A DNA stretch of 64,000 nt from an uncultured Bacteroidota bacterium. GTDB taxonomy: Bacteria > Bacteroidota > Ignavibacteria > UBA10030 > UBA6906. Made by a program: the position numbers and the translations under genes. Below the pieces are notes generated by a model, which saw only the letters and a program-made list of their open reading frames with translations, did not search any database and was not told the DNA's origin. Of the stretch, positions 49,794 through 64,000 are shown one piece after another. Positions within the stretch are counted from its first letter, which is position 1; each line of letters starts with the position of its first letter. The stretch lies in NCBI GenBank assembly GCA_963700635.1, contig CAVOYH010000005.1:96001-160000 (forward strand), written 5' to 3'.

Positions 49794-51329
49794 TTGCCCT
49801 CAAAGGTCCTCAGCAGCGCCACCTATGGCGTCACGGCCTTTCTCGTAGAGGTTGAGACCCATCTTGAAAAAGGCCTCCCCGGCTTCTCCATCGTCGGTCT
49901 TCCGGACAATGCCATCCGGGAAAGCCGCGAACGGATTGCCGCCGCCATCCGGAACTGCGGATTCGAATTCCCCCTGCGAAAAATAACCATGAACCTCGCT
50001 CCGGCCGACATCAAAAAGGAGGGTTCCTCCTTTGACCTCCCCATGGCTGTGGGCATCCTGGCGGCCACAGGGCAGGTCAACAATGAGGTACTCCCGGACT
50101 ATCTCCTCGTGGGGGAGCTGGCGCTGGACGGAGCATTAAGACCGGTGCACGGCGTGCTCCCGATGGCCCTTGAAGCAAGAACCCGGAGCATAAAGGGTAT
50201 GCTCCTGCCCAAAGAGAATGGCAAGGAAGCATCAATGGTGTCTGGACTGTCGGTTTTCCCTGTTTCTTCGCTCAAGGAGGCCGTTGAATTCCTGGATTCG
50301 GATCACGAGAGGCTTCTACCCGTAGTTCTTGACAGGGAAGAACTCTTCCGTCAGGATCACCGGTATCTGGCGGACTTTGCGGATGTCAAGGGGCAGGAAA
50401 ATGTCAAGCGTGCGCTTGAGGTGGGGGCTGCAGGAGCCCATAATATCATCATGATAGGGCCTCCTGGCTCAGGTAAAACGATGCTTGCCAAACGGCTTCC
50501 CGGCATATTGCCTCCTCTTTCTTTTGATGAAGCTCTGGAGACGACCAAAGTTCATTCTGTGGCGGGCCTGCTCCCACCCGACACGGCTGTCGTGTCAATC
50601 CGTCCTTTCCGCTCACCCCACCATACGATTTCGGACGCGGCGCTTGTGGGTGGTGGCTCCGTGCCACGCCCCGGTGAGATCTCCCTGTGCCACAATGGTG
50701 TTCTGTTTCTTGACGAGCTCCCGGAGTTCGCCCGGAACGTGCTTGAGGTGCTCCGGCAGCCTCTCGAAGACGGGTGTGTAACCATCAGCAGGTCCAAGCT
50801 GACCGTGACCTACCCCGCAAACTTTATGCTGGTTTGTGCGATGAACCCCTGTCCGTGCGGCCATTTCACCGATCCTCAGAAGGAGTGCACCTGTCAGCCC
50901 GCGGAGGTGCAGAGGTACATGACTCGTATCTCAGGCCCTTTGCTCGACCGGATTGATTTGCACATCGAAGTTCCCGCCGTGAAATATCGTGAGCTTGCCA
51001 GCAAAGAGCATGGGGAATGCTCGGCTGAAATCAGGGCGCGCGTGACCGCTGCCCGCGCCCGACAGACCGCCAGGTTCAGAGCCCGGAAGGGTCTCTATGC
51101 CAATGCCGATATGCAATCCAGCCAGATACGGGAATTCTGCGGGATCAATGGCACCGGAGAAGAGTTGTTGAAAATGGCCATTACAAAACTAGGGCTTTCC
51201 GCGCGGGCATACGATCGAATTCTCAAAGTGTCGCGTACGATTGCCGATCTGGCTCAGTCGGAGGGGATCAAGCCAGAACACGTTGCCGAGGCGATACAGT
51301 ACCGGTCGCTGGATCGGACTTTGCTGTGA
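49794..51329 (+). CDS. comM: YifB/ComM-family Mg-chelatase-like AAA+ ATPase
   Basis: [59 protein letters not shown]; the frame is intact. Confidence 0.94.
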
Positions 51330-51454
51330 AGAGGTCGCAGCCCCTTGACTGATAACGCCTGTTGATTCCCTGTTCGGCCACTGTGCGGCAACTGCCCCCG
51401 ATGTGTGGACGTGTTTCGCCTACCTCGTGCGAGAGAACCGAACACGCTCAAGTG

Positions 51455-51491
51455 TGTCTCTGCGCGCCCTGTCTCTGCGCGCGGTCTCTGC
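51455..51491 (+). repeat. three short direct repeats of GTCTCTGC(GCGC)
   Basis: TGTCTCTGCGCGC at 51455 and 51470, plus GTCTCTGC at 51484. Confidence 0.6.
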
Positions 51492-51784
51492 ATGTATGTG
51501 TTTTCTTCTTGATAAACTCGAACTCAGCCCGTATATTGCTGCCAACTTTCCGGGGGGAGAGCAAATGCGAACTAGATCCGAAGCCTCACTGGTCCGAATG
51601 GATGGTGGGGCTTCTTTCGTTTTGTTCGGAGCATTCCCTTTCTCCGTTTCGTGAGAGTGGAGTCTCCGTGCTCTGCGACATCTGACACCATGGAAGATGA
51701 TGCCGCCATCTTCTTGATTCCGTACTCAATGTTTGTCTTATCGTCTCAGGGGATGAGAAGAGGCATAGAGAACTGGATAAGGCT

Positions 51785-53077
51785 ATGGAGCAGCGGATGA
51801 GAAAATGGACTCAGATGTTCTTCTTTGGGATCCTGATCTTCACCTGTTCAGCTTCAGCCCAACAATGGGTTGGGCAAATCGGCGGTGTAAGCACGGCGTT
51901 GTTTTCCGTACAGTTTATTGATTCCCTCCGCGGCTGGGCGGTTGGTGACAGCGGCATGGTTCTTCACACATGCACCGCCGGACAACAATGGACACAGCAA
52001 CTCTCAGGGGTGAACTCGGTCCTCCGAAAGGTGTTCTTTGTCGACTCCCTCTCCGGCTGGGCAGTTGGCAGCAGAGGTGTTGTTATCTACACAAAGGATG
52101 GCGGAAATACGTGGCGACAAAAGGCGATGAGCCCGAACCCTCCATATTGGGATGTTCATTTCGCGGACTCTCTTCACGGATGGATTGTTGGTGGTACTGA
52201 AACCTTTGATGGCGTTTTTGGAGTCATCTTTAGAACCACGGATGGTGGTTCGACGTGGACGGAAACAATCGCCAATGATGCCGGGGGTTTTCAAGGAGTC
52301 TTTTTTCTGGACTCACTCAGGGGTTGGGTTGTCGGTGGGAAGCGACTCTTTGACAACTTTGATCCTGACATTGTTCTTCACACGACAAACGGAGGGAACT
52401 CATGGCAGGAGCAACACACGCCAACTGATGGCCCGCTGTATCGCGTAGAATTCTCTGATTCATTGAATGGATGGGCAGGAGGATTCTCCAATCCTGGCGG
52501 CACAGTTGCGCTCCACACAACAGACGGTGGAACAACGTGGCTAGTGGTGTCATTCCAACCGGGGCCAATCGTAACCAATGAAGGTATCCTGGATATTGAA
52601 GTGACTGGGAACGATGTTGTGTGGCTTGTCCGTGTTAATTCTGTCCATCGTACGATGAATGAGGGGGCCTTGTGGCAGGAAATCAATCCGTCCGAACCAA
52701 GTGGCACGCTGGCCATTTCATTCTCTGATGGGCGTCATGGCTGGCTGGTGGGGGGGGTGGGTCATATCTGGAAGTACTCGAATCCAAGTACCGGTGTCAT
52801 CGAGGCGATTGGCGCACCTCAAGATGGGTCTCTCAGTATTTTCCCCAATCCCACAAACGGTCAGGTGACGATTCAATTTCAATCAAGGGGATCCGACCAG
52901 ACAGTTATCGAGATATATTCCCTCGTTGGACAAAGAGTCTTCCACACCTACAGGGATTCTCACACTGGTGTCAATACTGTTGTTCTCGACCCTTCAATGT
53001 TGGGCAGCGGAGTATATTTCGCCAGAGTATGGGGACGGGATAGAATACAGTGGGGAAGATTCATCATCAATAAATAG
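51785..53077 (+). CDS. YCF48-like/BNR-repeat beta-propeller protein with a T9SS C-terminal sorting domain
   Basis: Signal peptide, repeated F.DSL.GW.VG and T.DGG.TW motifs; FPNPT...IYSLVGQ...SGVYF CTD. Confidence 0.88.
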   Translation: MEQRMRKWTQMFFFGILIFTCSASAQQWVGQIGGVSTALFSVQFIDSLRGWAVGDSGMVLHTCTAGQQWTQQLSGVNSVLRKVFFVDSLSGWAVGSRGVVIYTKDGGNTWRQKAMSPNPPYWDVHFADSLHGWIVGGTETFDGVFGVIFRTTDGGSTWTETIANDAGGFQGVFFLDSLRGWVVGGKRLFDNFDPDIVLHTTNGGNSWQEQHTPTDGPLYRVEFSDSLNGWAGGFSNPGGTVALHTTDGGTTWLVVSFQPGPIVTNEGILDIEVTGNDVVWLVRVNSVHRTMNEGALWQEINPSEPSGTLAISFSDGRHGWLVGGVGHIWKYSNPSTGVIEAIGAPQDGSLSIFPNPTNGQVTIQFQSRGSDQTVIEIYSLVGQRVFHTYRDSHTGVNTVVLDPSMLGSGVYFARVWGRDRIQWGRFIINK

Positions 53078-53173
53078 AATCAAACTAGACGGAGGATCCT
53101 ATTGACCTGACCCCCGAAACTCGGTCCAAGATTTTGTAGACAAAAATGTTATCTTGGACCAGAAGGAGGGCAT

Positions 53174-53452
53174 ATGGGTAAGCAACGGCACACGGCAGAG
53201 CAGATTATTGCAAAGTTGCGAGAGGCGGAGGTCCTCCAGGGCAAAGGGATGTTGCTGGAGGAGGTCCTGCGGCAGATCGGGATCAGTGACGCGACGTACT
53301 ACAAGTGGCGGAAAGAGTACGGAGGGTTACGGGTCGACCAGGCGAAGCGGCTCAAGGAGCTCGAGCACGAGAACAGCCGCCTGAAGAAGGCAGTGGCCGA
53401 TCTGACGTTGGATAACATGATCCTGAAGGAAGTCAGCCGGGGAAAATATTGA
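53174..53452 (+). CDS. IS3 transposase OrfA (HTH)
   Basis: HTAEQII.KLR, TYYKWRKEYGG, KRLKELE.EN.RLKK; AAGGAGG SD. Confidence 0.92.
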   Translation: MGKQRHTAEQIIAKLREAEVLQGKGMLLEEVLRQIGISDATYYKWRKEYGGLRVDQAKRLKELEHENSRLKKAVADLTLDNMILKEVSRGKY

Positions 53453-53474
53453 GCCCGGCCAAACGGCGCCGGGC
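53440..53474 (+). other. programmed -1 frameshift signal: G_GGA_AAA plus a GCCCGGC/GCCGGGC hairpin
   Basis: X_XXY_YYZ heptamer in the orfA frame at the orfA/orfB overlap, with a stimulatory stem 5 nt downstream. Confidence 0.8.
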
Positions 53475-54295
53475 AGCAGTTCAGGTTCAGTCAGTACTCC
53501 AGGTGTCAGAACGACGTGTCTGTCGTGCCATGGACCACCCCAGATCAACGCAGAGACGAAACCCGGTGGTCAAGTCCGATGAGGAGGCTCTGCGAAAGGA
53601 AATTGTCAAGACGGCATGTGCCTACGGGCGGTATGGGTATCGTAGGGTAACGGCACTGTTGCGGAACGGTGGGTGGAGGGTAAATCATAAGCGGGTTGAG
53701 CGGATATGGCGTCAGGAAGGGCTGAAAGTGCCCAAGCGGCAGCCCAAACGGAGAAGGTTGTGGTTGAATGATGGTTCCTGTATCCGGCTGCGACCCGAGT
53801 ATCCAAACCACGTCTGGAGCTATGATTTTGTGGCTGAGCGGACCACTGACGGAAGACCACTGCGGATGTTGAACATCATGGATGAATACACGCGGGAATG
53901 CCTCAGAATCCACATTGGACGGCAGGTCAAGGCGACAGATGTAATCTATGAATTATCTGAACTCTTCATCGAACGTGGAGCGCCGGACTACCTTAGGTCA
54001 GACAACGGATCAGAGTTTACGGCAGATCTGATTCGGGAATGGCTCGGGCGGCTCGGTGTCAAGACACTGTTCATCGAACCGGGGAGTCCCGTGGGAAAAC
54101 GGGTACATCGAGTCATTCAACGGTAAACTCAGAGACGAGCTGCTCAACGGGGAGATCTTTGACACGATCCTGGAAGCGAGAGTAGTAGCGGAGGACTGGA
54201 GGCGGCTCTACAACACAATCAGGCCACACAGCTCACTGGGCTATCGAGCACCGGCACCGGAAGCACACTCCCTACACCAGGTCGCCAATGCCTGA
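53449..54295 (+). pseudogene. IS3 transposase OrfB (rve integrase) with an extra +1 frameshift at about 54081-54090
   Basis: YGYRR, WSYDF and RSDNG.EF in one frame; PWENGYIESFNGKLRDE and RPHSSLGY in the next frame. Confidence 0.82.
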
Positions 54296-54359
54296 GACAG
54301 GGAAAAAACGAACTCAACATTGGTACACGAACCGGGGGCAGGTCATTAGGAGATGATGC

Positions 54360-55121
54360 GTGCAGCCTCCTATGCAAGACACGAACGCCGAAATCAAGCT
54401 CCTGTTGGGGGCACACACGCTGAGTTCGTTTGGCAGGCGGTGTGCGGTCTTGTTGGGGGTTCTGCTCGCCATGCAATTGTCATGTAAGGATGTTGGTCTC
54501 CCTCCCGATGAGAAGAATGGTCACAATTCCCCCGAGTGCCTGAGTGATCGATACCCCATTGACACAACAAGAGTCTACCTCTTTCCACTCTCGCGAGACA
54601 CGCTCACGATCTATCCCAAGGCCATCTTCGCGCGTTTCCACCCCTGGGTAAGTGATACTTCACGGATCGTGGCGCTGGCTGCGAAGCACAACCTTCGGCT
54701 TCTACGGTATCTTTTCATGCTCGACGGCCAATTCGCCGGAGTCTTTTGTGTGACCGATGGCAGAAGGGCGGAGTACCATTTCACCCCGTGGGGAAAGCAA
54801 CCGTGGGACAACTTTGGTGCGGATTCATTGGTCGAGCACTGCTTTGGGACCTTTGATTCAGGGTACCATATTCCATACGGGACAATTGTCTTTCAGTTCG
54901 TCGATGGGACACCATCTAGCACAATCGACAGTTTGTTTGTCGCGAATGGATTACGCTTTCTATATACTGGAAATCCTACAGGTGAGCTCTATTATACACT
55001 TGTCACTCCTCGTGCAGTGAATAATCCGCTTGATTTGGCCTGCAAGTTACAATCATTGTCGTTTGTACGCTACATTAACGCTGAAATCGCCTCAGCAATG
55101 TCACCTGTTAGATGTGAGTGA
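54360..55121 (+). CDS. hypothetical lipoprotein
   Basis: RR + hydrophobic stretch + QLSC lipobox; two similar small alpha/beta repeats; start uncertain. Confidence 0.6.
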   Translation: MQPPMQDTNAEIKLLLGAHTLSSFGRRCAVLLGVLLAMQLSCKDVGLPPDEKNGHNSPECLSDRYPIDTTRVYLFPLSRDTLTIYPKAIFARFHPWVSDTSRIVALAAKHNLRLLRYLFMLDGQFAGVFCVTDGRRAEYHFTPWGKQPWDNFGADSLVEHCFGTFDSGYHIPYGTIVFQFVDGTPSSTIDSLFVANGLRFLYTGNPTGELYYTLVTPRAVNNPLDLACKLQSLSFVRYINAEIASAMSPVRCE

Positions 55122-55409
55122 AGCATTCTCGATTTTGAGATGGAGGTTGTGGCAAGTTTGCTCTGACACCTGAGCAAAAGAGATCCCAGCGGTGACAACG
55201 AAACATGTTGGACAGACGCTGACGCAGCGGCGCTCTACCAGAGCTTCCGTGAGTCTTTCACGAATTGTCAAGTCCAGCGAAACGTGCGAGTTGAACAGCT
55301 GATTGTGCAACGAGGCTGTTTTGCCAGCGAGTGTGTACGCTTCGCCGTTGCGGTTGTTCTTTGGTCAGTGAGAGGACAAACCCTCATCTGACTTGATGAG
55401 GGACTGGAT

Positions 55410-55943
55410 TCACGGGCGTTTGTCCGGCGGCGGCCCGCCCATGCCCGGCGGTGGGACGCCCCGCCCATCTTGGAGGGGGTGTGGGAGCGATAACTCCTGC
55501 AGCACCTGCTGCATGATCCGATCAAACTTCGCGGACTGCTGCTCAGCGCATATTCCCTTAATCTCCTGAAAATGTCTCAGCGTTACCAGACCGAGCTCTG
55601 ACTCGTGCCGCCCGATTTCTCTCGCCTTTGCCGTGACGAGACTGTCTGATACGCTCGGTCTTTGCACGAGCGCGAAGAAATCCCTCTTGGCATTCCTCAA
55701 TTGTTCCAGGATCTCCCGGCTTGTGCGCTGATGTGACAAGACGAGTTGATCAAACTGCTTCTGCTGTTCAGGTGAGAATTGTAATTCTTTCGCGATAAAT
55801 TCCTTCGGACTTACATCGGGCTTAGGAGGCACATCAGTCTGCCGATCTACCATCCACCAGAGCGTTCCCAGGGTCACAAGATCGATTACGATGAGCACGG
55901 CGATGATGCCGAGCAATACCTTATTCTTTCCGAAGTAGTCCAT
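55410..55943 (-). CDS. Spy/CpxP-like periplasmic (heavy-metal sensor-type) protein
   Basis: N-terminal TM, ELQFSPEQQKQF (LTxxQ-like), HF.EIK.IC..QQ..KF, Pro/Gly tail. Confidence 0.8.
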   Translation of the reverse strand: MDYFGKNKVLLGIIAVLIVIDLVTLGTLWWMVDRQTDVPPKPDVSPKEFIAKELQFSPEQQKQFDQLVLSHQRTSREILEQLRNAKRDFFALVQRPSVSDSLVTAKAREIGRHESELGLVTLRHFQEIKGICAEQQSAKFDRIMQQVLQELSLPHPLQDGRGVPPPGMGGPPPDKRP

Positions 55944-55958
55944 AGAGAGTTCTCTTCT

Positions 55959-56270
55959 TTAATAGCTGTATCCGTTTGCGGTCAAGTGATATTCAGCGAC
56001 AATGCTCTGGACCGGATCTGCATTCTCCTGCATGGAAGCATGCGAACGAATTTCAACCAAGGAAAAGACATTGCCAATAATCAACAGGAGCAGCCCGGCA
56101 AGCGCCAAGCGATACGCCCGCGGCGTGAACGCCGGACGTTCGTCCCGCTGTTCCGCAATGCGCCGCATCACTTTATCGGCGAGATACGGGTTCGATTGAA
56201 CCCGGTTGATCTTCGTAAACAGGTTGAGTGTGCGTTCTGCTTCTTCATCATATTTGTCGAGAGGGTTCAT
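55959..56270 (-). CDS. putative single-TM anti-sigma factor
   Basis: NPYL..KVM.RI cytoplasmic helix and one TM; directly downstream of the ECF sigma gene. Confidence 0.72.
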   Translation of the reverse strand: MNPLDKYDEEAERTLNLFTKINRVQSNPYLADKVMRRIAEQRDERPAFTPRAYRLALAGLLLLIIGNVFSLVEIRSHASMQENADPVQSIVAEYHLTANGYSY

Positions 56271-56277
56271 ATCCGCC

Positions 56278-56910
56278 TCACAAATTGTTTTTGTAAAAAT
56301 CGAAAAGCCTCTTTTTCAGCGTCGACCGGGCCCGGAAAATGAGCGACTCGACGGACGACACGCTCACCGACATCATGTCCCCGATCTCTTTGTGACTTAA
56401 TCCTTCCACCAAGTGCATCGTCAATGCAATACGTTGGTTGTCGGGAAGCTTGTCAATGTGCCGGAACAAGACTTGCGCACGCTCCTTGTCTTCCATTTGC
56501 ACACCCGGATGGGAAAACTCGTCGGCAACATCAATGTCTTCCCCCTCTGCGCCTACAAGCGACTGCAAAAAGCCGAACCGCTTTTTCCGCTTCTTCCAGC
56601 GCAAATGGTCAAGCGACTTCGTTACTGCAATGCGATAGACCCACGTTGACAACTGTGAGTCGCCGCGAAACGACGCAAGCGAATGATGTACTTCGAGAAA
56701 CACTTCCTGGGTCACATCTTCCGCATCTTCTTTGTTGTGAAGAAATCCCAGACACGTATTGAAGACACGGTCTTGATTGTGTCCCATCCAGCTTCGGAAC
56801 ACTGCGTCTTTCTCCCTAAGGGACGTGCCGGATTTAACAATCTCAACGAGATTGCTGTCTTCAGCTGAGGCCTGTGGCGGTCCCTGATGATGTGACGTTA
56901 TCGGAGTCAA
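56278..56910 (-). CDS. ECF (sigma-70 family) RNA polymerase sigma factor
   Basis: DAEDVTQEVF, FRG.SQLSTWVYRIA (region 2), LP..QR.A...EGLSHKEI..SVESLIFRAR (region 4); start codon uncertain. Confidence 0.93.
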   Translation of the reverse strand: MTPITSHHQGPPQASAEDSNLVEIVKSGTSLREKDAVFRSWMGHNQDRVFNTCLGFLHNKEDAEDVTQEVFLEVHHSLASFRGDSQLSTWVYRIAVTKSLDHLRWKKRKKRFGFLQSLVGAEGEDIDVADEFSHPGVQMEDKERAQVLFRHIDKLPDNQRIALTMHLVEGLSHKEIGDMMSVSVSSVESLIFRARSTLKKRLFDFYKNNL

Positions 56911-56920
56911 AATCTTGCGC
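56891..56920 (-). promoter_or_regulatory. putative ECF promoter, copy 1 (GCGCAAG-N16-CGTCACA)
   Basis: Same boxes and spacing as the copies at 57049 and 59839; overlaps the predicted TTG start of the sigma gene. Confidence 0.6.
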
Positions 56921-57048
56921 TGACGGATCTATGATTGCACAATGATAGTGTTTTCGACGGATATGTTGCCACCTCACTACGCATTTAGGGCCAAAACCAT
57001 GAAAAAAGGCATTAAAAAGTCACTCTGAGAAGAAATTGGCTTCCGGGA

Positions 57049-57078
57049 GCGCTGGATTTTACCCGGAATAGCGTCTTA
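57049..57078 (+). promoter_or_regulatory. putative ECF promoter, copy 2 (GCGCTGG-N16-CGTCTTA)
   Basis: About 120 nt upstream of the ferredoxin gene; CGTC is typical of ECF -10 boxes. Confidence 0.65.
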
Positions 57079-57101
57079 AGTAATAGCATCCGCCGGCAGG
57101 T

Positions 57102-57163
57102 AATTGTTGACTCATCGCGTTCACCGGGAACCCGATAAGGCCGCAAGGTTTCTCTCAATTGAT
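57102..57163 (+). ncRNA. candidate cis-regulatory structured leader
   Basis: TAATTG/CAATTG closing stem, ATCG-GTTC/GAAC-CGAT arm and a GGCC-GCAA-GGTT tetraloop hairpin in the 5' UTR. Confidence 0.35.
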
Positions 57164-57197
57164 CGTCAAAAGTAATACGAGATGAAGAACGGAGATT

Positions 57198-57416
57198 GTG
57201 ATGTCAATTAAGAGTATTGATGGATGCATTGGATGTGGGACATGTATACAAACATGTCCTACAGATGTTATTCGTTTCGATCCAAATTCGAAAAAAGCAA
57301 TGATACAGTATCCGGAAGATTGTCAGATATGCCACTTGTGCCGTATGTATTGCCCGGTTGATGCCATCACTATTTCACCGGAGAAATCCATTCCGGTCAT
57401 AGTGTCATGGGGATAA
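57198..57416 (+). CDS. 2x[4Fe-4S] ferredoxin (AprB-like), no signal peptide
   Basis: CIGCGTCIQTCP and CQICHLCRMYCP motifs; GGAG SD. Confidence 0.92.
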   Translation: MMSIKSIDGCIGCGTCIQTCPTDVIRFDPNSKKAMIQYPEDCQICHLCRMYCPVDAITISPEKSIPVIVSWG

Positions 57417-57420
57417 GATA

Positions 57421-58071
57421 ATGAATAAAGATTCAAAAATGGAATATCTGATTCCAGCAACAGGAATCCTTATCGGTCTGCCCGTGCTGTTTTGGGCATT
57501 AGGAGACTTTCCCCGTCGAACCGTTCTCAAGGAATCTCTTTCACTCCTCTTCATTCTGTCGTTTTCTCTGATGCTTGGACAGTTTTTTCTTGGCCGGGGT
57601 AACAGAAATATTGTCATGAGATTCAAAATGAGTACGGTTCTCAGATATCATAAGGTCATTGCGTATACCATTGTTGGTGTATTCTTGATGCATCCCTTTC
57701 TTATCGTGTTTCCCAGGTATTTTGAATCTGGAATTACCCCCATGGAGGCATTCACGACCATGATTACAACATATGAAAGCCTTGGTATAGTGTTCGGACT
57801 CAGTGCATGGTTCCTGTTGCTTGTGTTGGGATTAACATCTCTCCTCCGCAATAAGCTTCCACTGAAGTACAACCATTGGAGAGTCTTTCACGGCATTGTG
57901 TCTATGCTCTTTATATCAGTTGCCACGTATCATGCAATTGACCTTGGCCGTCACACAAATCTGGCTCTGTCCATGTACATGATTGTCCTGGCTGTGAGCG
58001 GAATACTGCTGCTGGTGAAGACCTATATCGTCAAACCATCGAAGGTAGGGAGTGGACATGGCCTTGAATAA
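57421..58071 (+). CDS. ferric-reductase-like transmembrane (putative di-heme b) subunit
   Basis: About 6 TM helices with two His pairs (YHK...MHP; FHG...YHA) and an LRNKL..KY..WR..H motif; no FAD/NAD domain. Confidence 0.82.
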   Translation: MNKDSKMEYLIPATGILIGLPVLFWALGDFPRRTVLKESLSLLFILSFSLMLGQFFLGRGNRNIVMRFKMSTVLRYHKVIAYTIVGVFLMHPFLIVFPRYFESGITPMEAFTTMITTYESLGIVFGLSAWFLLLVLGLTSLLRNKLPLKYNHWRVFHGIVSMLFISVATYHAIDLGRHTNLALSMYMIVLAVSGILLLVKTYIVKPSKVGSGHGLE

Positions 58072-59821
58072 GAGTAAAGACACGCACGGTTTATCCAGGC
58101 GTCAGTTCATAGCGCTTTCTGGTGGTGCGGCAGGTTTTGCGACCCTTGTTGCAATGGGTGTACCGGCAGGGTGGGCGGAAAATGAACCGGATGTTGACGT
58201 GGACGCGATGAACACAAAAGAACATAGAACAGATGTACTCGTTATCGGCGGAGGAATGGCAGGATTGTTTGCGGCAGTAAAGGCTCACGATGCGGGATCC
58301 ACAGTGATGCTCGTTTCCAAAGGTCGCCTGGGCTCGTCGGGGATGACTCCGTTTGCCAAAGGAATATTCACGTACGATCCCGTGACTGAAAAACTTAGCC
58401 TTAATGAATTTGTTGATACTGTATCCCGCTCGGCCTTAGGGACCAACAATGCGGTTTATACCAGGCAAATGGCCGAACATTCGCTGGCGCGGGTACATGA
58501 GCTACGGGAATGGGGATTTTTTGATTCACCTCTTTACAATAATTCCTTTAGCAAGCCCATTACTGACCGAAAAATCCCTGTGATGGAGAGGATTGTAATT
58601 ACACATCTCATCAAAGAAGAAGGCAGGATTGCAGGTGCTGCAGGTTTTAGCCTCGATGAATCGAGGGTTCACATCTTCAATGCGAAGAGTGTTATTCTCT
58701 GTACGGGTGCAGGTGGTTTTAAACCTAATGGCTTTCCCATCTGTGATCTGACACATGACGGCACGATTATGGCGTACAACATCGGAGCAAAAGTCACAGG
58801 CAAAGAATGGAACGACGGCCATCCGGGTCAGGCAACGAATGCCGCGGATTGTTTCGGCGGTTGGCATGGCATGTTTGAGCGAACACCAGGAACAACCGGA
58901 GTTGAGGTCCATCACGATTTGGGCGTTGATCTGAATTACAAGGCATATATTGCCGGAAACCCGGTTGAAATGGGGCGTCCGGGGCAGGGCGATGAAAATC
59001 AGGTGCAAGGCGGCCCGTATGTTCCGGCTGAATTTAGACGAAGCGGACCTCCCCCAGGGGGAAGAAATAACGGCGATGGAGGAGAAAGACCCAGAGACGG
59101 TGGTGCGCCTCCTGGAATGCGTGGAGTTCCTGTGGGTGGATCTTCTGCCGGAATGTCTATTCACAAATCGGAAGGAATTGTACCGATTAATGACAAATGC
59201 GAATCGACTATTCCAGGTTTATATGCTGCTGGTGATTCGCTGGGATCCTATATGGCAGGAGCTATTTATACCCAGGTAGGATCTTCATTGGCGGGCTCTG
59301 CCGTCCAGGGTGCTATAGCGGCAGAGGCTGCGGCTGAATATTGTAAAAACACTGAAGCAGCGACTATTTCAACTTCCCAAATCAATAGAATAGAAGAAGA
59401 GATTCTCGCTCCATTGAAAAGGGAAGCTGGGTACAGTCCCGCCTGGGTAACTCAAACATTACAGAGCGTAATGATTCCTAACTTTGTCCTCTACATCAAA
59501 AAAGAGAACATGCTCAAAGCAGCGTTATCGTACGTTGAAGAGTTGAGGGATCACCACATGCCTTTACTGAGAGCCTCCGATATGCATGAGCTACGATTAG
59601 CCCATGAAACCAGGAACATGATTACAACCGCAGAAATGAAACTTAAAGCTTCACTTATGCGAAAAGAGAGCCGCTGTAGTCATTACCGACTCGATTATCC
59701 CGATGTAGACAATACCAATTGGGAAGCGTGGATCAACATCTACAAAGATGCTGATGGTACTATGCAATTTGAAAAGCAAGCGTTTGACACCTGGCCGGAT
59801 GGTAAGAAACTCATTATCTGA
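58058..59821 (+). CDS. Tat-exported FAD-dependent oxidoreductase of the SdhA/FrdA/AprA/NadB superfamily
   Basis: SRRQFI Tat signal, DVLVIGGGMAG, AKSVILCTG.GG, PGLYAAGD, RKESRCSHYRLDYP C-terminal domain. Confidence 0.88.
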   Translation: MALNKSKDTHGLSRRQFIALSGGAAGFATLVAMGVPAGWAENEPDVDVDAMNTKEHRTDVLVIGGGMAGLFAAVKAHDAGSTVMLVSKGRLGSSGMTPFAKGIFTYDPVTEKLSLNEFVDTVSRSALGTNNAVYTRQMAEHSLARVHELREWGFFDSPLYNNSFSKPITDRKIPVMERIVITHLIKEEGRIAGAAGFSLDESRVHIFNAKSVILCTGAGGFKPNGFPICDLTHDGTIMAYNIGAKVTGKEWNDGHPGQATNAADCFGGWHGMFERTPGTTGVEVHHDLGVDLNYKAYIAGNPVEMGRPGQGDENQVQGGPYVPAEFRRSGPPPGGRNNGDGGERPRDGGAPPGMRGVPVGGSSAGMSIHKSEGIVPINDKCESTIPGLYAAGDSLGSYMAGAIYTQVGSSLAGSAVQGAIAAEAAAEYCKNTEAATISTSQINRIEEEILAPLKREAGYSPAWVTQTLQSVMIPNFVLYIKKENMLKAALSYVEELRDHHMPLLRASDMHELRLAHETRNMITTAEMKLKASLMRKESRCSHYRLDYPDVDNTNWEAWINIYKDADGTMQFEKQAFDTWPDGKKLII

Positions 59822-59838
59822 ATTGCATGAGAATATCT

Positions 59839-59868
59839 GCGCAAGGTATTTGCCATATCATCGTCTTA
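59839..59868 (+). promoter_or_regulatory. putative ECF promoter, copy 3 (GCGCAAG-N16-CGTCTTA)
   Basis: Upstream of the CotH gene; same boxes and spacing as copies 1 and 2. Confidence 0.65.
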
Positions 59869-60044
59869 CATAAGTGAACACGCTGACCAACGCCCGCCGG
59901 GGGGAAAGTGATTGTGATGCCAACGGACTCACAATTCCGCACTCGCTCAATTGTGATTCTGACAATGTATCGGGGCGAATGCGGCGACACGTTGTATTCG
60001 ACTACACAGAATCCATGTGCCTTCAACCAACTAAAGAGGATCCA

Positions 60045-62333
60045 ATGAAAAGGATATATATGTCTCTGCTGATGATTCTTGTGAGCATTGGCGGGTTCAC
60101 AACAAACTCTTTTGCGCAAGAATTCTACGACATTAACACCATTCAGACTATTTCAATAACGTTTTCGCAAAGTAATTGGGACTATATGCTGGATACTGCC
60201 AAAGCCGGAAGCGATGGCTATATCATGGCACAATCAGTCAGCATAAATGGAACTCTGTTTGATAGTGTGGGCGTAAAATACAAAGGGAACAGCAGTTACA
60301 ATCCCAGCTACATTAAGAATCCATTCCATATTGAATTAGATACATACAAAGAACAGGATTATCAAAGTTACAAAGACATCAAGCTTAGTAATGTCTACAA
60401 GGATCCATCGTATTTGCGCGAAGTGCTCTCATATTCCATTCTGCGGCAGTATATGATTGCTCCATTATCAAACTATGCCAATGTTACCGTCAACGGAGCC
60501 TTACTCGGACTGTATGTGAGCTCCGAGTCCATCGGCAAAACATTTGTCAGCAAAAATTTCTATTCCAAAGATAATGCATTCTTCAAGTGCAGTCCGGTTG
60601 ATGGTGCCACTCCCGGAACAACCGCTATACCCAATCTGGTGTATCTGGGCCCCGACAGTGCGAGCTACTCTGAAGCATACGAAATAAAATCTGATTATGG
60701 ATGGATGGATTTACTCACGCTTATGAGCACACTTCAGAGCAATGTAGGCGCTATAGAAAATGTTCTGGATGTGGATAGAGCCTTGTGGATGCTCGCCTTT
60801 AATAACATTCTGGTGAATCTTGATAGTTATATAGGCGTATTTGCACAGAACTACTATTTGTATAAAGACAATACCGGACGTTTTAGTTGTGTGCTCTGGG
60901 ATTTTAATGAGTCGTTCGGAGTATTCAGCCAGACGGGAACAATTAATCTCCCGAATACGCCTGACAAAATTCAGATGACGCATTTGTTGCATGCCGGTGA
61001 CGCGAGCTGGCCGTTAGTACAAAAGCTGCTTTCCGTTCCTACGTATAAGAAGATGTACCTGGCACACTTGCATACAATCCTCACAGAAAACTTTTCAAAC
61101 AATAGTTATTATACGTTGGCGCAGTCAATACAACCAATAATTGATGCTGCGGTGCAGGCTGATCCAAATAGGTTTTTTACGTATCCGCAATACCAAAGCA
61201 ATCTTACAACAGAAGTAGGGTTCGGCCCGAATGCCGTTCCCGGCATTACAGCGTTGATGAATGGCAGAAACACCTACCTCTCTGGGCTTTCTGATTTTAC
61301 GAATACGAAACCAACGATCACCAGCGTCGCATCCAGTGACACAAATCCCAATGTAAATAGCACGATAGTTATTACTGCAAATGTAATTAATACAAACACA
61401 AATGCTGTCTACCTGGGGTATAGAGGGAATAAAGAACATAGATTCACAAAGATCCTCATGTATGATGACGGCGCTCATGGTGATGGTGCCGCGGGGGACA
61501 ATGTGTATGGTGTGTCAATTATTGCAAGCAGTTCGCCACTGCAATACTACATCTATGCAGAAAATAATAATGTTGGAATGTTCTCGCCGGTTAGGGCTGA
61601 ACATGAATTCTATTCGATCACTGTTAATACAACAAGTAGCAGTGATATCGTGATGAATGAAATATATTCAAGAGGCACCACGGCAGATCCTGACTGGATA
61701 GAGATGTATAACGCATCGTCGTCACCAATCGATATCAGTGGTTACAAAATCTATGACAGCGGTGGTGAAGGCGGCACGAAACCCAAGAAAGAACTTCCTG
61801 CCGGGTCCGTAGTTCCTTCTCACGGTGTGTTCGTTGTCGTTACAGACGACACATCCGCAAGTGGTTTCGGGCTTTCAAGTTCTGGCGAGAAAGTGTGGTT
61901 GGAGAACACTGCAGGCGAAGTCATCGACTCGGTGACCTTCCCGGCACTTACCGTCTCCCAGTCCTATGGAAGAATGCCGGATGGAGGCGTGTGGCAAACA
62001 TTGGGTACGATTACACGCGGTGGATCGAATGGTTCACCTACCGGAATTACGGACGACGCATTGAACATAACAACCTATAAGCTTTCCCAAAACTATCCGA
62101 ATCCGTTCAATCCATCAACAACAATCAGCTATCAGCTTGCGGCGGAAGGTCACGCCACATTAAAAGTGTACAACCTGCTCGGGGAAGAAGTCGCTACACT
62201 TGTAAACGAACGCCTGGGCGCTGGATCGTTCACAACGGAATGGAACGCAGCACAATTGCCAAGCGGTATCTACTTCTACCGCCTGCAAGCGGGGTCATTC
62301 TCGGAAACGAAGAGGTTGATACTCTTGAAGTAG
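60045..62333 (+). CDS. CotH-family kinase with a lamin-tail-like domain and a T9SS C-terminal sorting domain
   Basis: Signal peptide; VGVKYKGNSS, REVLSY, GLY...E, N.DSY...QNYYLY and WDFNESFG CotH motifs; MNEI..DWIE.YN LTD; QNYPNPFNPST...SGIYFYRL CTD. Confidence 0.9.
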   Translation: MKRIYMSLLMILVSIGGFTTNSFAQEFYDINTIQTISITFSQSNWDYMLDTAKAGSDGYIMAQSVSINGTLFDSVGVKYKGNSSYNPSYIKNPFHIELDTYKEQDYQSYKDIKLSNVYKDPSYLREVLSYSILRQYMIAPLSNYANVTVNGALLGLYVSSESIGKTFVSKNFYSKDNAFFKCSPVDGATPGTTAIPNLVYLGPDSASYSEAYEIKSDYGWMDLLTLMSTLQSNVGAIENVLDVDRALWMLAFNNILVNLDSYIGVFAQNYYLYKDNTGRFSCVLWDFNESFGVFSQTGTINLPNTPDKIQMTHLLHAGDASWPLVQKLLSVPTYKKMYLAHLHTILTENFSNNSYYTLAQSIQPIIDAAVQADPNRFFTYPQYQSNLTTEVGFGPNAVPGITALMNGRNTYLSGLSDFTNTKPTITSVASSDTNPNVNSTIVITANVINTNTNAVYLGYRGNKEHRFTKILMYDDGAHGDGAAGDNVYGVSIIASSSPLQYYIYAENNNVGMFSPVRAEHEFYSITVNTTSSSDIVMNEIYSRGTTADPDWIEMYNASSSPIDISGYKIYDSGGEGGTKPKKELPAGSVVPSHGVFVVVTDDTSASGFGLSSSGEKVWLENTAGEVIDSVTFPALTVSQSYGRMPDGGVWQTLGTITRGGSNGSPTGITDDALNITTYKLSQNYPNPFNPSTTISYQLAAEGHATLKVYNLLGEEVATLVNERLGAGSFTTEWNAAQLPSGIYFYRLQAGSFSETKRLILLK

Positions 62334-62550: not shown

Positions 62551-63555
62551 CTATAGAGTCCTGGTGGTCAAAGGTGCGCCGGAATGGAAATTCTCCACTC
62601 CAGGATCGCCCGCTGCCGACCGCCCGGCGAGCAGCTCTCCTCCCAGTCTTTCCAGCTGCAGACGCCTGCCAATCTCAACCTCGCGCGCCAGGCTCGTAAC
62701 AATGTTTGCAAGGTCGTACCGGGAAGCATGTGCATCCAGTGAGGCGAGCGCCCTGGCGGTTACTGCGTTTCCCACAAGAGGGCGCAACCGTTTCCTTGTG
62801 CGTTCAATGTTCCCCTGGCAACTCTGCCGGGTGCTTTCCTGAATTGAGCGCATCACACGTTCTTGAATGTCTCGGGATTCGTCGATTTCGCGCTCCAGAA
62901 AGTCCCTGAGCATCCATTCCGGATGGCCGTAATGGACACATTGTCGCTTTCCGGAGTCAATCTCAATAACCGCGCCGTTGGAACAGACGTACCGGAGGAC
63001 AAAATGGTGGACTGAGAGAGCACGGAATCCCGTTTCCGAGTTGAACACATTGTGCCCCATGCCGCACTCATCGCCCGGAACCGGGAACACGCGCGCACGG
63101 ATAGTTGTATACACTCTCATGAAGAAGTCGTTTCGCGATATGCTGGCAACCCCGAGTGACCGGGCCAGCTCAAGTACTTCAAGATCAGAAATGTTGTTGT
63201 ATCTGCCGCTGGTGATCGAAAGTGCCTCTCCATTTTCCACCTTCAACGTCACGTCTCCGCTCCTGATGTTGAGGAGAAAATCGTTCAGGATTGAACTCAC
63301 GGTGTCAATGTTCAGCCGACCCAAATGGCGTGCCGGAAACCCGTACCATTTCAGGAGCTTGTGCAAAAAAACCTCCCTCACCGGGTATTCCGACACGCCA
63401 CCCCTGGACATTCGGAGAAGCAACATGGTGCCGTCATTCACGACATGCAGGTTCTGCGGATCCACCTGGAACTCTTGCAGCCGGCGGTCCCTGAGAAAGT
63501 CCACGACTTCTTCGGGAGCCGCTTCTGCGAACGTCTGACCATGCCTCAGATTCAC
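62551..63555 (-). CDS. DUF932/DUF945-like protein
   Basis: S.RY..I.D..VL, FNSETG..AL.V and LRYVCSNG motifs, C-terminal NIVTSLA...RRL.LERLGG; GTG start overlaps the upstream TGA. Confidence 0.7.
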   Translation of the reverse strand: MNLRHGQTFAEAAPEEVVDFLRDRRLQEFQVDPQNLHVVNDGTMLLLRMSRGGVSEYPVREVFLHKLLKWYGFPARHLGRLNIDTVSSILNDFLLNIRSGDVTLKVENGEALSITSGRYNNISDLEVLELARSLGVASISRNDFFMRVYTTIRARVFPVPGDECGMGHNVFNSETGFRALSVHHFVLRYVCSNGAVIEIDSGKRQCVHYGHPEWMLRDFLEREIDESRDIQERVMRSIQESTRQSCQGNIERTRKRLRPLVGNAVTARALASLDAHASRYDLANIVTSLAREVEIGRRLQLERLGGELLAGRSAAGDPGVENFHSGAPLTTRTL

Positions 63556-64000
63556 CGTTGTTTTGCTCCCTTTGCTCCTTCCTTTTTCCGGAACGCCGCA
63601 AGGTGTATCTGATGGGTATTATAGACCAGTTCAAACCCGGTCACACCTTCCGAATCAAAACGCCGGTCCGTTCCCACGCCGGCCCCGGGGGCTTCGTGGT
63701 ACTGCTGTTCTTCGAGGAGATCGAGGAATTCCAGAGTCCGGTAGCGCGCCTCGGCTTCGGAAAGTTTTGCCTTGGTAGGCCGTTTAGCACCTGCCTCGAA
63801 TGCGGCCCCGCGGAGGAGCTTCGGGAAGTATTCCGCATACACGTCACGGCGGTTAAACACGTCAACCCCGACAAGCGTCTTGCCGAAGAATACCGCCAGC
63901 CCGTTGGCATTTTCGCTCAGCGTAAAATGACTTATAAACGTGGTGAATTCGTCCGCCTTCTCTTTGAAGACATCCGACAGGTTGGATGTCGGAGAGGCGA
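63552..64000 (-). CDS. ARPP-1/DUF6569-like protein (5'-truncated by the window edge)
   Basis: Frame is open to the window end: SPTSNLSDVF...NGLAVFFG..LVGVDVFN...Y..YFPKLLRGAA.EA...GVG.D.R...G..L.....IHLAAF. Confidence 0.7.
   Translation of the reverse strand, partial: ASPTSNLSDVFKEKADEFTTFISHFTLSENANGLAVFFGKTLVGVDVFNRRDVYAEYFPKLLRGAAFEAGAKRPTKAKLSEAEARYRTLEFLDLLEEQQYHEAPGAGVGTDRRFDSEGVTGFELVYNTHQIHLAAFRKKEGAKGAKQR

Follow-up and report, generated by a model that had tools for sequence, protein, structure and literature searches.

What might a bacterium reduce outside its cytoplasm with a ferredoxin, a membrane cytochrome and a flavoprotein encoded side by side? The question is raised by positions 57198-59821 of a 64,000-nucleotide stretch of contig CAVOYH010000005.1 from an uncultured Bacteroidota bacterium, hereafter the window. 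The three linked genes appear to encode an undescribed complex that passes electrons from the membrane to an exported flavin enzyme, and its role is most likely to neutralise a damaging compound, of a presumptive class, during cell-envelope stress. Gene linkage, conservation of the export signal, folds, residue replacements and modelled docking were computed. The parts of the unit are as follows, with residue numbers of the flavoprotein matched to E. coli FrdA (Met-1 numbering) by hhalign.

57201-57416, plus strand: ferredoxin with two [4Fe-4S] clusters, 71 aa, resembling the AprB core and without a signal peptide (open reading frame, Pfam and alignment)
57198, plus strand: alternative GTG start of the ferredoxin gene (sequence)
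57421-58071, plus strand: MsrQ/FRD-type six-helix diheme cytochrome b, 216 aa, without a reductase domain (PF01794, invariant His, model)
58058-59821, plus strand: AprA/SdhA-superfamily flavoprotein, 587 aa, predicted to be exported by twin-arginine translocation (Tat) and to bind flavin adenine dinucleotide (FAD) non-covalently, with a D253/H255/H369/Y404 site (domains, model and alignment)
58058-58177, plus strand: twin-arginine signal peptide of the flavoprotein (sequence; conservation in the closest proteins)
58094-58111, plus strand: SRRQFI motif, flavoprotein residues 13-18 (sequence)
58820-58957, plus strand: folded remnant of the cap (about residues 255-300), H255 included, in the modelled ferredoxin interface (alignment, AlphaFold and complex model)
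59045-59116, plus strand: loop rich in Gly and Pro (residues 330-353) that varies in length and sequence and has low model confidence (alignment and AlphaFold)
59162-59269, plus strand: C-terminal active-site residues from H369 (FrdA H356) to Y404 (FrdA R391) (alignment)

Linkage and spread of the three genes

The trio is real and conserved. In the window its reading frames are spaced by 4 nt and then overlap by 14 nt. Relatives of the flavoprotein number 1571 at E <= 1e-20 among 7998 scored candidates, and the 120 closest ones listed, the query included, are 71-86% identical to it. A relative is encoded on 457 GTDB stretches, and all gene-context counts below cover the best 80 of these loci, which are 66-97% identical and belong to Bacteroidota, Desulfobacterota, Campylobacterota, Omnitrophota, Cloacimonadota, Calditrichota, Planctomycetota and other phyla. 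The ferredoxin, membrane and flavoprotein genes are adjacent and in this order in 72 of the 80, so that the three genes do co-occur in other genomes, a point on which the initial annotation had staked its reading. One of the 72 (L020) is a remnant with the last 15 ferredoxin codons left and the flavoprotein gene split. At four loci (L024, L047, L048 and L053) there is no membrane gene and the ferredoxin gene immediately precedes that of the flavoprotein; four more are broken off by a contig end. The same trio lies on a plasmid of Paracoccus seriniphilus; hosts also include Flavobacteriaceae, and the cultured ones are Paracoccus seriniphilus, Desulfobacter, Lutibacter and Ilyobacter. Such identity (66-97%) in so wide a range of phyla suggests that the trait is mobile and under selection. 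No fused form was found of the membrane protein (379-2000 aa, 8000 candidates) or of the flavoprotein (1100-3140 aa, 7998 candidates), both being weak negatives.

On a plasmid of Ilyobacter polytropus (L002:9428-17723) the order is a NapH-like/FMN-binding protein, a small secreted protein, the ferredoxin, three flavoproteins and tatA-tatC-tatA, and of the three flavoprotein paralogs only the last carries a signal. This cluster possibly encodes a multi-subunit hitchhiker complex. As the membrane gene is absent at four loci and swapped in Ilyobacter while the ferredoxin is kept, the ferredoxin follows the flavoprotein, and the membrane partner is exchangeable. Tat genes also stand beside the cluster in a Cloacimonadaceae genome, where tatC adjoins the trio (L057:12227-12982). 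At L048 (11799-17743), L053 and L037, the ferredoxin and flavoprotein genes are followed immediately and in the same direction by genes for an outer-membrane factor, a membrane-fusion protein and an RND permease; the cytochrome gene is absent from the efflux-linked loci L048 and L053.

The flavoprotein and its active site

The Tat signal and the SdhA/AprA-type FAD and C-terminal domains that had been read from the sequence are borne out: SRRQFI occupies residues 13-18, and Pfam matches FAD_binding_2 and Succ_DH_flav_C. Twin arginines are present in 117 of the 120 closest flavoproteins, the other three beginning downstream of that position, and cleavage is predicted after AGWA. The covalent-FAD histidine of FrdA, H45, corresponds to Gly95, invariant in 120/120, and FAD is probably bound non-covalently for this reason. 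Both histidines of the FrdA dicarboxylate site are kept and invariant in all 120, H233 as H255 and H356 as H369; the former lies in EWNDGHP, as had been proposed for the QFHPT-equivalent His. The HGANRL arginine, R391, is replaced, again as first noticed, by Y404, while T245/E246 correspond to G267/G268 and R288 has no aligned Arg. Relative to FrdA the RFGG hairpin is gone, with about 29 residues deleted after G153. The retention of H369, the glycine at the covalent-FAD position and the loss of the hairpin extend the first description of the site. K101, K249, D253, H255, H369 and Y404 are invariant in all 120 sequences, and H270, H286 and D287 are further conserved residues of the cap remnant.

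The capping region had been described as short and largely a Gly/Pro-rich loop. The loop is there, at residues 330-353, but the region is not short: the segment from H255 to H369 has 115 residues compared to 124 in FrdA, 113 in SdhA and 108 in NadB, and residues ~251-300 are folded (predicted local distance difference test (pLDDT) 79-92) and conserved in relatives. The AlphaFold model of the mature protein has a mean pLDDT of 91.9, and values below 50 occur only at residues 334-353 (except 350). In this model the cap region has, besides a loop, no more than a pair of short helices and a single short strand, suggesting that the canonical alpha/beta cap is exchanged for a small folded remnant and a variable loop, and not merely shortened. 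An intact cap with canonical Frd/NadB catalytic residues is thus not what we see, as both arginines, the hairpin and the alpha/beta cap are absent, and the earlier proposal that the enzyme performs neither fumarate nor adenosine 5'-phosphosulfate (APS) chemistry is supported.

The best folds for the model are the reductase for 3'-phosphoadenosine 5'-phosphosulfate (PAPS), APS reductase and FrdA, with Foldseek TM scores of 0.70-0.72 for the PAPS and APS reductases; PAPS reductase 8a8o aligns over 467 residues with Z 41.1 and a root mean square deviation (rmsd) of 3.0. PAPS reductase and AprA also rank first in a family profile search (E 1.9e-74). A PDB search with the H369-Y404 segment alone returned only generic FAD-domain matches, and the ESM Atlas with homologue P0084 only automatic FAD-protein names. 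With AprAB and the Methanothermococcus PAPS reductase (8a8o, 1jnr, 2fja), the trio shares non-covalent FAD, the helical C-terminal domain, the His equivalent to H369, and an Frd-family alpha subunit paired with a small 2x[4Fe-4S] partner, as judged by folds, eight invariant Cys and modelled binding. Unlike them, the trio flavoprotein has a Tat signal and a membrane cytochrome partner, and the deletion that takes the hairpin also removes the loop equivalent to PAPS reductase residues 104-123, where the specificity residues of that enzyme lie (excerpts from PMC10322725). The Trp206/Tyr207 pair at the FAD of the PAPS/APS reductases is Phe/Pro (F226/P227), the ferredoxin has 71 aa compared to 104-166 in their partners, with a Gln after C41, and the AprAB/PAPS-type models score 94-125 bits against cut-offs of 557-642. 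The extracytosolic PF00890 reductases CirA, CirC, UrdA and Fcc3 are likewise exported FAD enzymes, and the enoate reductases among them have an Arg-to-Tyr exchange whose match in position to Y404 is presumed. They align over ~290-320 residues of the flavoprotein model only and use FMN or cytochrome c modules, whereas the trio flavoprotein has Succ_DH_flav_C and an Fe-S partner.

An NCBIfam scan of the three trio proteins gave no match that reached its cut-off, and among 54 more distant relatives of the flavoprotein none passes an NCBIfam cut-off shown. The following assignments were tried and rejected. For SdhA/FrdA, TIGR01812 scores 123.6 against a cut-off of 567.3, the covalent-FAD His, R288, R391 and T245/E246 are not kept, the RFGG hairpin and the full alpha/beta cap are missing, and the partner is a 71-aa 2x[4Fe-4S] protein, not of SdhB/FrdB type. 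For NadB, TIGR00551 scores 89.6 against 452.75 and a Tyr stands at the HGANR Arg position. For AprAB, aprA scores 94.2 against 641.75 and aprB 31.7 against 135.65, and the Tat signal is conserved. PRK08275 is the top NCBIfam match at 178.9 against 587, true members scoring 1014 and 1144. The proteins of this uncharacterised family share 28% identity over 508 columns with the flavoprotein and adjoin a ferredoxin, but they have no signal, keep the hairpin, lack D253/H255/Y404 and neighbour ABC transporter and HEAT-repeat genes. Judged by its sequence, the flavoprotein is not Frd/Sdh, NadB or AprA.

A FastTree phylogeny of 107 sequences was rooted on E. coli FrdA/SdhA/NadB and did not include true AprA, because there was no AprA-annotated record among the plasmid matches listed. 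The query falls in a clade of 39 (Shimodaira-Hasegawa support 0.955), nested among cytoplasmic PRK08275/TfrA-like proteins. The Tat motif occurs in 29 of the 39 compared to 1 of the 68 outside, the short hairpin in 27 compared to none outside, and within the clade D253 with H255 is present in 37 and Y404 in 33. The D/H/H/Y residue set is also found in cytoplasmic relatives. In an IQ-TREE analysis of 38 sequences the same grouping was only moderate (ultrafast bootstrap 64-69), the wider group reaching 91-99. A subclade of longer Tat members (P0161, P0177, P0180, P0185, P0187 and P0230) keeps the D/H/H/Y set with a longer hairpin, and several of its members carry a lipoprotein-type Cys.

The predicted electron wire

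The membrane protein had been said to contain four transmembrane His and no reductase domain, and so it does: H77, H91, H157 and H171 are invariant in 60/60 sequences, and Pfam gives PF01794 (41.6 bits; cut-off 28). The two His-X13-His pairs are predicted to bind two hemes, with H77/H157 at the inner and H91/H171 at the outer one. In the model there are six helices, and the closest fold is SpNOX 8qq7 (Z 15.4, rmsd 4.0, 185 aligned) followed by cytochrome b561 (Z 14.2). Six helices, paired His and PF01794 place the protein in the FRD superfamily (MsrQ/NOX/STEAP). No NCBIfam model matched it, that of MsrQ included; a solved MsrQ did not surface in the sequence or fold searches, by which kinship is not excluded. 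Mean Lys+Arg counts mark loops 58-78 (5.7) and 140-155 (4.2) as inside, and 28-38 (2.4), 97-120 (1.5) and 173-181 (1.1), each richer in acidic residues, as outside. MsrQ is described as quinone-binding (excerpts from PMC8238504), and the flavin reductase Fre as its possible electron source (excerpts from PMC5676040). For the present protein a cytosolic donor is as open as quinol, because the inner heme ligands are invariant.

The ferredoxin shows two 4Fe-4S motifs in Pfam and the CxxCxxC...CP cluster motif twice in its sequence; its eight Cys and the C-terminal S69-W70-G71 are invariant in 60/60. No Tat-like motif stands in frame upstream of its start in any of 76 starts examined, which upholds the view of an AprB-core-like protein free of a signal. 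A three-chain prediction was run with two hemes and our own alignments. The ferredoxin scored 0.90, compared to 0.52 for the best of three controls; 116 of 157 solved complexes score that high, as do 2 of 215 mismatched pairs, a calibration that holds only roughly for the present job. The runs agree in at least 91% of contacts, with partner pLDDT of at least 86. Together with the synteny of the trio, this score supports the proposal of a single complex.

In the model the ferredoxin has the flavoprotein on one side and the cytochrome's outward-facing loops on the other; the contacts of the cytochrome are restricted to the K/R-poor outer loops at 30-37, 95-123 and 175-177. The flavoprotein's lowest-error contacts, made by H510, R513, C229 and D230, fall on ferredoxin residues 17-22 and 36-45, at one of the clusters, while the cytochrome touches P52 beside the other cluster, which is the order needed by a wire from heme through two Fe-S clusters to FAD. 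The modelled ferredoxin interface also takes in cap remnant residues 257-302 and 359-363. In the flavoprotein and the cytochrome, conservation is higher at interface columns than elsewhere (0.92 vs 0.80 and 0.76 vs 0.58, respectively). Modelled docking on the outer loops, taken with the topology, thus favours the periplasm-facing wire that had been suggested. The further idea that the ferredoxin leaves the cytoplasm as a hitchhiker gains from its staying with the flavoprotein at all four loci without a membrane gene, and from the dedicated tatA-tatC-tatA set behind the Ilyobacter cluster. We regard the architecture of the wire, taken alone, as well supported.

Every module has a precedent: the catalytic pair in AprAB, the export of a pair of this kind by Tat in MFR, and the cytochrome in MsrPQ. 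MfrABE (SdhABE) of Wolinella and Campylobacter combines a Tat-exported flavoprotein, a hydrophilic partner and non-covalent FAD (excerpts from PMC2680327); the Tat signal and non-covalent FAD are predicted from sequence for the trio too, but the trio lacks the dicarboxylate arginines, has an Fe-S protein of AprB and not SdhB type and an FRD cytochrome in place of SdhE, and scores 45.3 bits against 1100. In MsrPQ, too, a periplasmic enzyme is fed by a stand-alone six-helix diheme cytochrome of PF01794 (excerpts from PMC8238504 and PMC5676040); there the catalyst is the molybdoenzyme MsrP, here an FAD enzyme with an Fe-S relay. No MsrP-like family is among the annotated recurring neighbour families. 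A description of the trio or its family was not found in the literature searched, subscription journals and supplementary files lying outside its scope.

Neighbouring genes, substrate and competing explanations

The genes around the trio in the window bear on what the complex may reduce.

56278-56910, minus strand: divergent extracytoplasmic function (ECF) sigma factor, probable local regulator (Pfam/NCBIfam; same layout in locus L005)
55959-56270, minus strand: single-pass anti-sigma-like protein (position behind the sigma gene; weak match to NF052375, 16.6 bits vs a cut-off of 100)
55410-55943, minus strand: membrane-anchored Spy/CpxP/CnrX-like periplasmic protein with a Gly/Pro tail (PF13801 25.2 bits, cut-off 29.2; PF07813 17.4 bits)
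60045-62333, plus strand: CotH kinase with LTD and type IX secretion system (T9SS) sorting domains (Pfam)

At least one gene of a recurring module is found at 61 of the 80 loci: Spy/CpxP-like (31), CotH (29), DUF1566 (29), a small secreted GPPP protein (21), VTC (16), DUF2490 (16), DUF4956 (15), EF-hand (9) and Cthe_2159 (8). A LytS/LytTR pair accompanies 23 loci and a BaeSR-like pair 12, and MFS, RND or MarR genes occur at 12, nine of which are among the 19 loci lacking module genes. By family assignment the neighbours are envelope-stress genes (Spy/CpxP-like, BaeSR-like, ECF and efflux).

Our preferred explanation is that the trio is an inducible, membrane-fed periplasmic reductase in envelope defence. 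We infer export, cofactors, direction of flow, stress induction and substrate class. The flavoprotein would bind FAD non-covalently, fold in the cytoplasm with the ferredoxin bound in the manner of AprAB, export the bound ferredoxin via Tat, and dock with it onto the diheme cytochrome b at its outer loops. Electrons supplied by quinol or by a donor in the cytosol would pass from the inner to the outer heme, to the distal [4Fe-4S] cluster (C9/C12/C15/C51), to the proximal one (C19/C41/C44/C47) and to FAD. Reduced FAD would then deliver hydride to an organic electrophile that is bulky and either neutral or weakly charged (for example an enone, an enoate or a quinone-like one), bound and protonated by Tyr404, His369, His255 and Asp253 in a pocket predicted to be opened through loss of the RFGG hairpin and the rigid cap. 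The loss of both arginines and the gain of Asp253 argue against dicarboxylates and APS. In two clades of cinnamate reductases, those of CirA and CirC, a Tyr takes the place of Arg at the last active-site position, where it is conserved and essential (excerpts from bioRxiv 10.1101/2022.12.26.521950). The initial annotation had favoured a macromolecule or metal because of the open site; the invariant Asp253/His255/His369/Tyr404 and the Tyr precedent in small-molecule enoate reductases, reported in that preprint, weaken this proposal and make a bulky organic substrate at least as likely.

Architecture and substrate class taken jointly, as an inducible reductase of the periplasm acting on a bulky organic electrophile, remain a tentative proposal to which we give somewhat less than an even chance, and several points weigh against it. 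The equation of Y404 with 'alignment position 6' of the cinnamate reductases was drawn from residue positions. Among the commonest neighbours, CotH (29), DUF1566 (29), VTC (16), DUF2490 (16) and DUF4956 (15) point to phosphate, metal or surface chemistry, not xenobiotics. BaeSR-like is the best NCBIfam match in the examples scanned, yet below cut-off, and the gene context rests on the best 80 of 457 loci. For the complex, the ferredoxin interface columns are not more conserved than the rest (0.88 vs 0.87), the flavoprotein-ferredoxin score may stem from likeness to the solved AprAB/PAPS reductase, and the job, with its own alignments and heme included, is unlike the calibration of the tool.

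Instead of a free compound, the same wire might repair damaged envelope proteins or polymers as a flavin-based analogue of MsrPQ, for instance by taking off S-sulfonate adducts in an AprA-type FAD-N5 attack or by reducing side chains that have been oxidised, with the Gly/Pro loop helping to capture unfolded clients. The membrane partner belongs to the MsrQ family, which has MsrP, a repair enzyme for periplasmic proteins, as its known client (excerpts from PMC5676040); the closest folds are PAPS and APS reductases, whose His aligns with H369, the hairpin and rigid cap are lost, and a Spy/CpxP-like or GPPP secreted protein is present at 52 of the 80 loci. We nevertheless find repair possible but doubtful: the AprA-type Trp/Tyr pair at the FAD is F226/P227 here, the added Asp253 makes an anionic sulfur substrate less likely, cytoplasmic relatives have the same residue set, and the Ilyobacter paralog triplets suggest small-molecule diversification. 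The position of AfAprA Arg265, presumably a residue with a role in that chemistry, is Gly257, and we count this against repair as well. In its boldest form, repair would be a second, flavin-based periplasmic pathway alongside MsrPQ, in which an exported, lidless module derived from APS reductase and plugged into a NOX/MsrQ-type cytochrome reverses a chemical lesion on envelope proteins, within a mobile stress module, so far undescribed, in which a Gly-Pro-Pro recognition tag is common to sensors, chaperones and enzyme; this we think unlikely.

Gly-Pro-Pro is frequent across the module, with GPP or PPG in 25 of 31 Spy/CpxP-like and 19 of 24 small secreted ORFs (raw counts, no background rate). 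Instances are found at 55410-55943 and 56278-56910 in the window and in neighbours at L007, L025, L037, L050 and L001; Pro-rich stretches also occur in sensor kinases, EF-hand proteins and the flavoprotein loop (59045-59116). Such segments are a possible shared tag or sensing motif. The small secreted protein of ~90 aa found at 21 loci (L050:8174-8449; L001:6269-6604) has the motif GPPPEA..AC and a second conserved Cys, has no Pfam match and frequently lies directly upstream of the ferredoxin.

As a detoxifying reductase for a metal or oxyanion, the periplasmic enzyme would hold the ion beside the flavin with Asp253/His255/His369/Tyr404 or with the cap histidines, and H270, H286 and D287 are extra conserved residues of the remnant. 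The divergent ECF, anti-sigma-like and PF13801-like genes of the window resemble a CnrHYX layout, which we count in favour of a metal, together with CNNM at 5, EF-hand at 9 and VTC at 16 of the 80 loci. FRD proteins often serve metal reduction (excerpts from PMC8238504), but an FAD enzyme is unnecessary for one-electron metal reduction, since the outer heme or an Fe-S cluster would do, and the PF13801 match is under cut-off; a metal or oxyanion substrate is improbable. A respiratory terminal reductase that uses an organic acceptor and conserves energy as MFR or the gut flavin reductases do seems a shade more improbable. MFR is also Tat-exported with non-covalent FAD (excerpts from PMC2680327), many GTDB hosts are sediment anaerobes and the Ilyobacter partner is NapH-like; however, no catabolic, donor-dehydrogenase or substrate-uptake genes are among the families recurring in at least four loci, the neighbours are stress regulators and secreted proteins, and the trio also occurs in Flavobacteriaceae and Paracoccus.

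Covalent FAD favours oxidation. The wire might run inward, from a periplasmic dehydrogenase to the quinone pool, as the superfamily includes dehydrogenases and the C-terminal FAD segment weakly matches the 3-ketosteroid dehydrogenase PRK12844 (42.6 bits vs 789), but Gly95 excludes covalent FAD and characterised FRD proteins pass electrons outward (excerpts from PMC8238504 and PMC5676040), and we hold this to be very unlikely. That the ferredoxin is instead a cytoplasmic donor to the inner heme, with the flavoprotein fed directly by the outer heme, would fit its missing signal peptide, the invariant inner heme ligands and its score of 0.52 when the flavoprotein is replaced in the complex model, but is hardly credible given that its modelled contacts are on the outer loops, that it persists where the membrane gene is absent or swapped, and that cytoplasmic relatives also pair a flavoprotein with a ferredoxin.

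The trio in the window was probably acquired recently. The 4.5-kb block 55300-59825 is 96.6% identical to that of L005, compared to 69-73% for flanking core genes, and lies downstream of comM in both; GC content at third codon positions (GC3) is 0.36-0.48 in the trio and cotH, compared to a median of 0.65 (minimum 0.57) in 42 upstream ORFs. High identity, the shared comM site and low GC3 together indicate recent lateral transfer. The region 49794-62333 is a low-GC accessory region downstream of comM (49794-51329) and contains a T9SS-sorted BNR-repeat protein (51785-53077), an unknown lipoprotein-like gene (54360-55121), the trio cassette and what we take, by motif, to be an IS3-like element (53174-54126); in L005 the cassette occupies the same site without inserts. 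At the right end of the region, a DUF932-like gene (weak match) adjoins an ARPP-1 gene (PF20208, 85.8 bits) at 62551-63998 on the minus strand. Scans for promoters, terminators and repeats gave nothing above chance. In Bacteroidota a block of VTC, DUF4956, DUF2490, in some cases Cthe_2159, and CotH accompanies the trio (L011, L012, L014, L022, L041, L074, L077 and others), possibly for extracellular phosphorylation or polyphosphate chemistry; a description of such a block with a redox enzyme was not found in the literature.

For the family, the analysis means that widespread proteins labelled 'succinate dehydrogenase/fumarate reductase flavoprotein' in databases would be unable to do that chemistry. 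The joining of an AprAB-like catalytic pair with an MsrQ/NOX-type cytochrome is a combination not met in the searches made, and it would follow MFR as a second example of a complex-II/APS-reductase-like flavoprotein exported by Tat together with an Fe-S hitchhiker. It also offers a concrete model for electron transfer from an FRD cytochrome to a periplasmic ferredoxin. Finally, the cultured hosts, Paracoccus seriniphilus, Desulfobacter, Lutibacter and Ilyobacter, make the question of the substrate directly testable.

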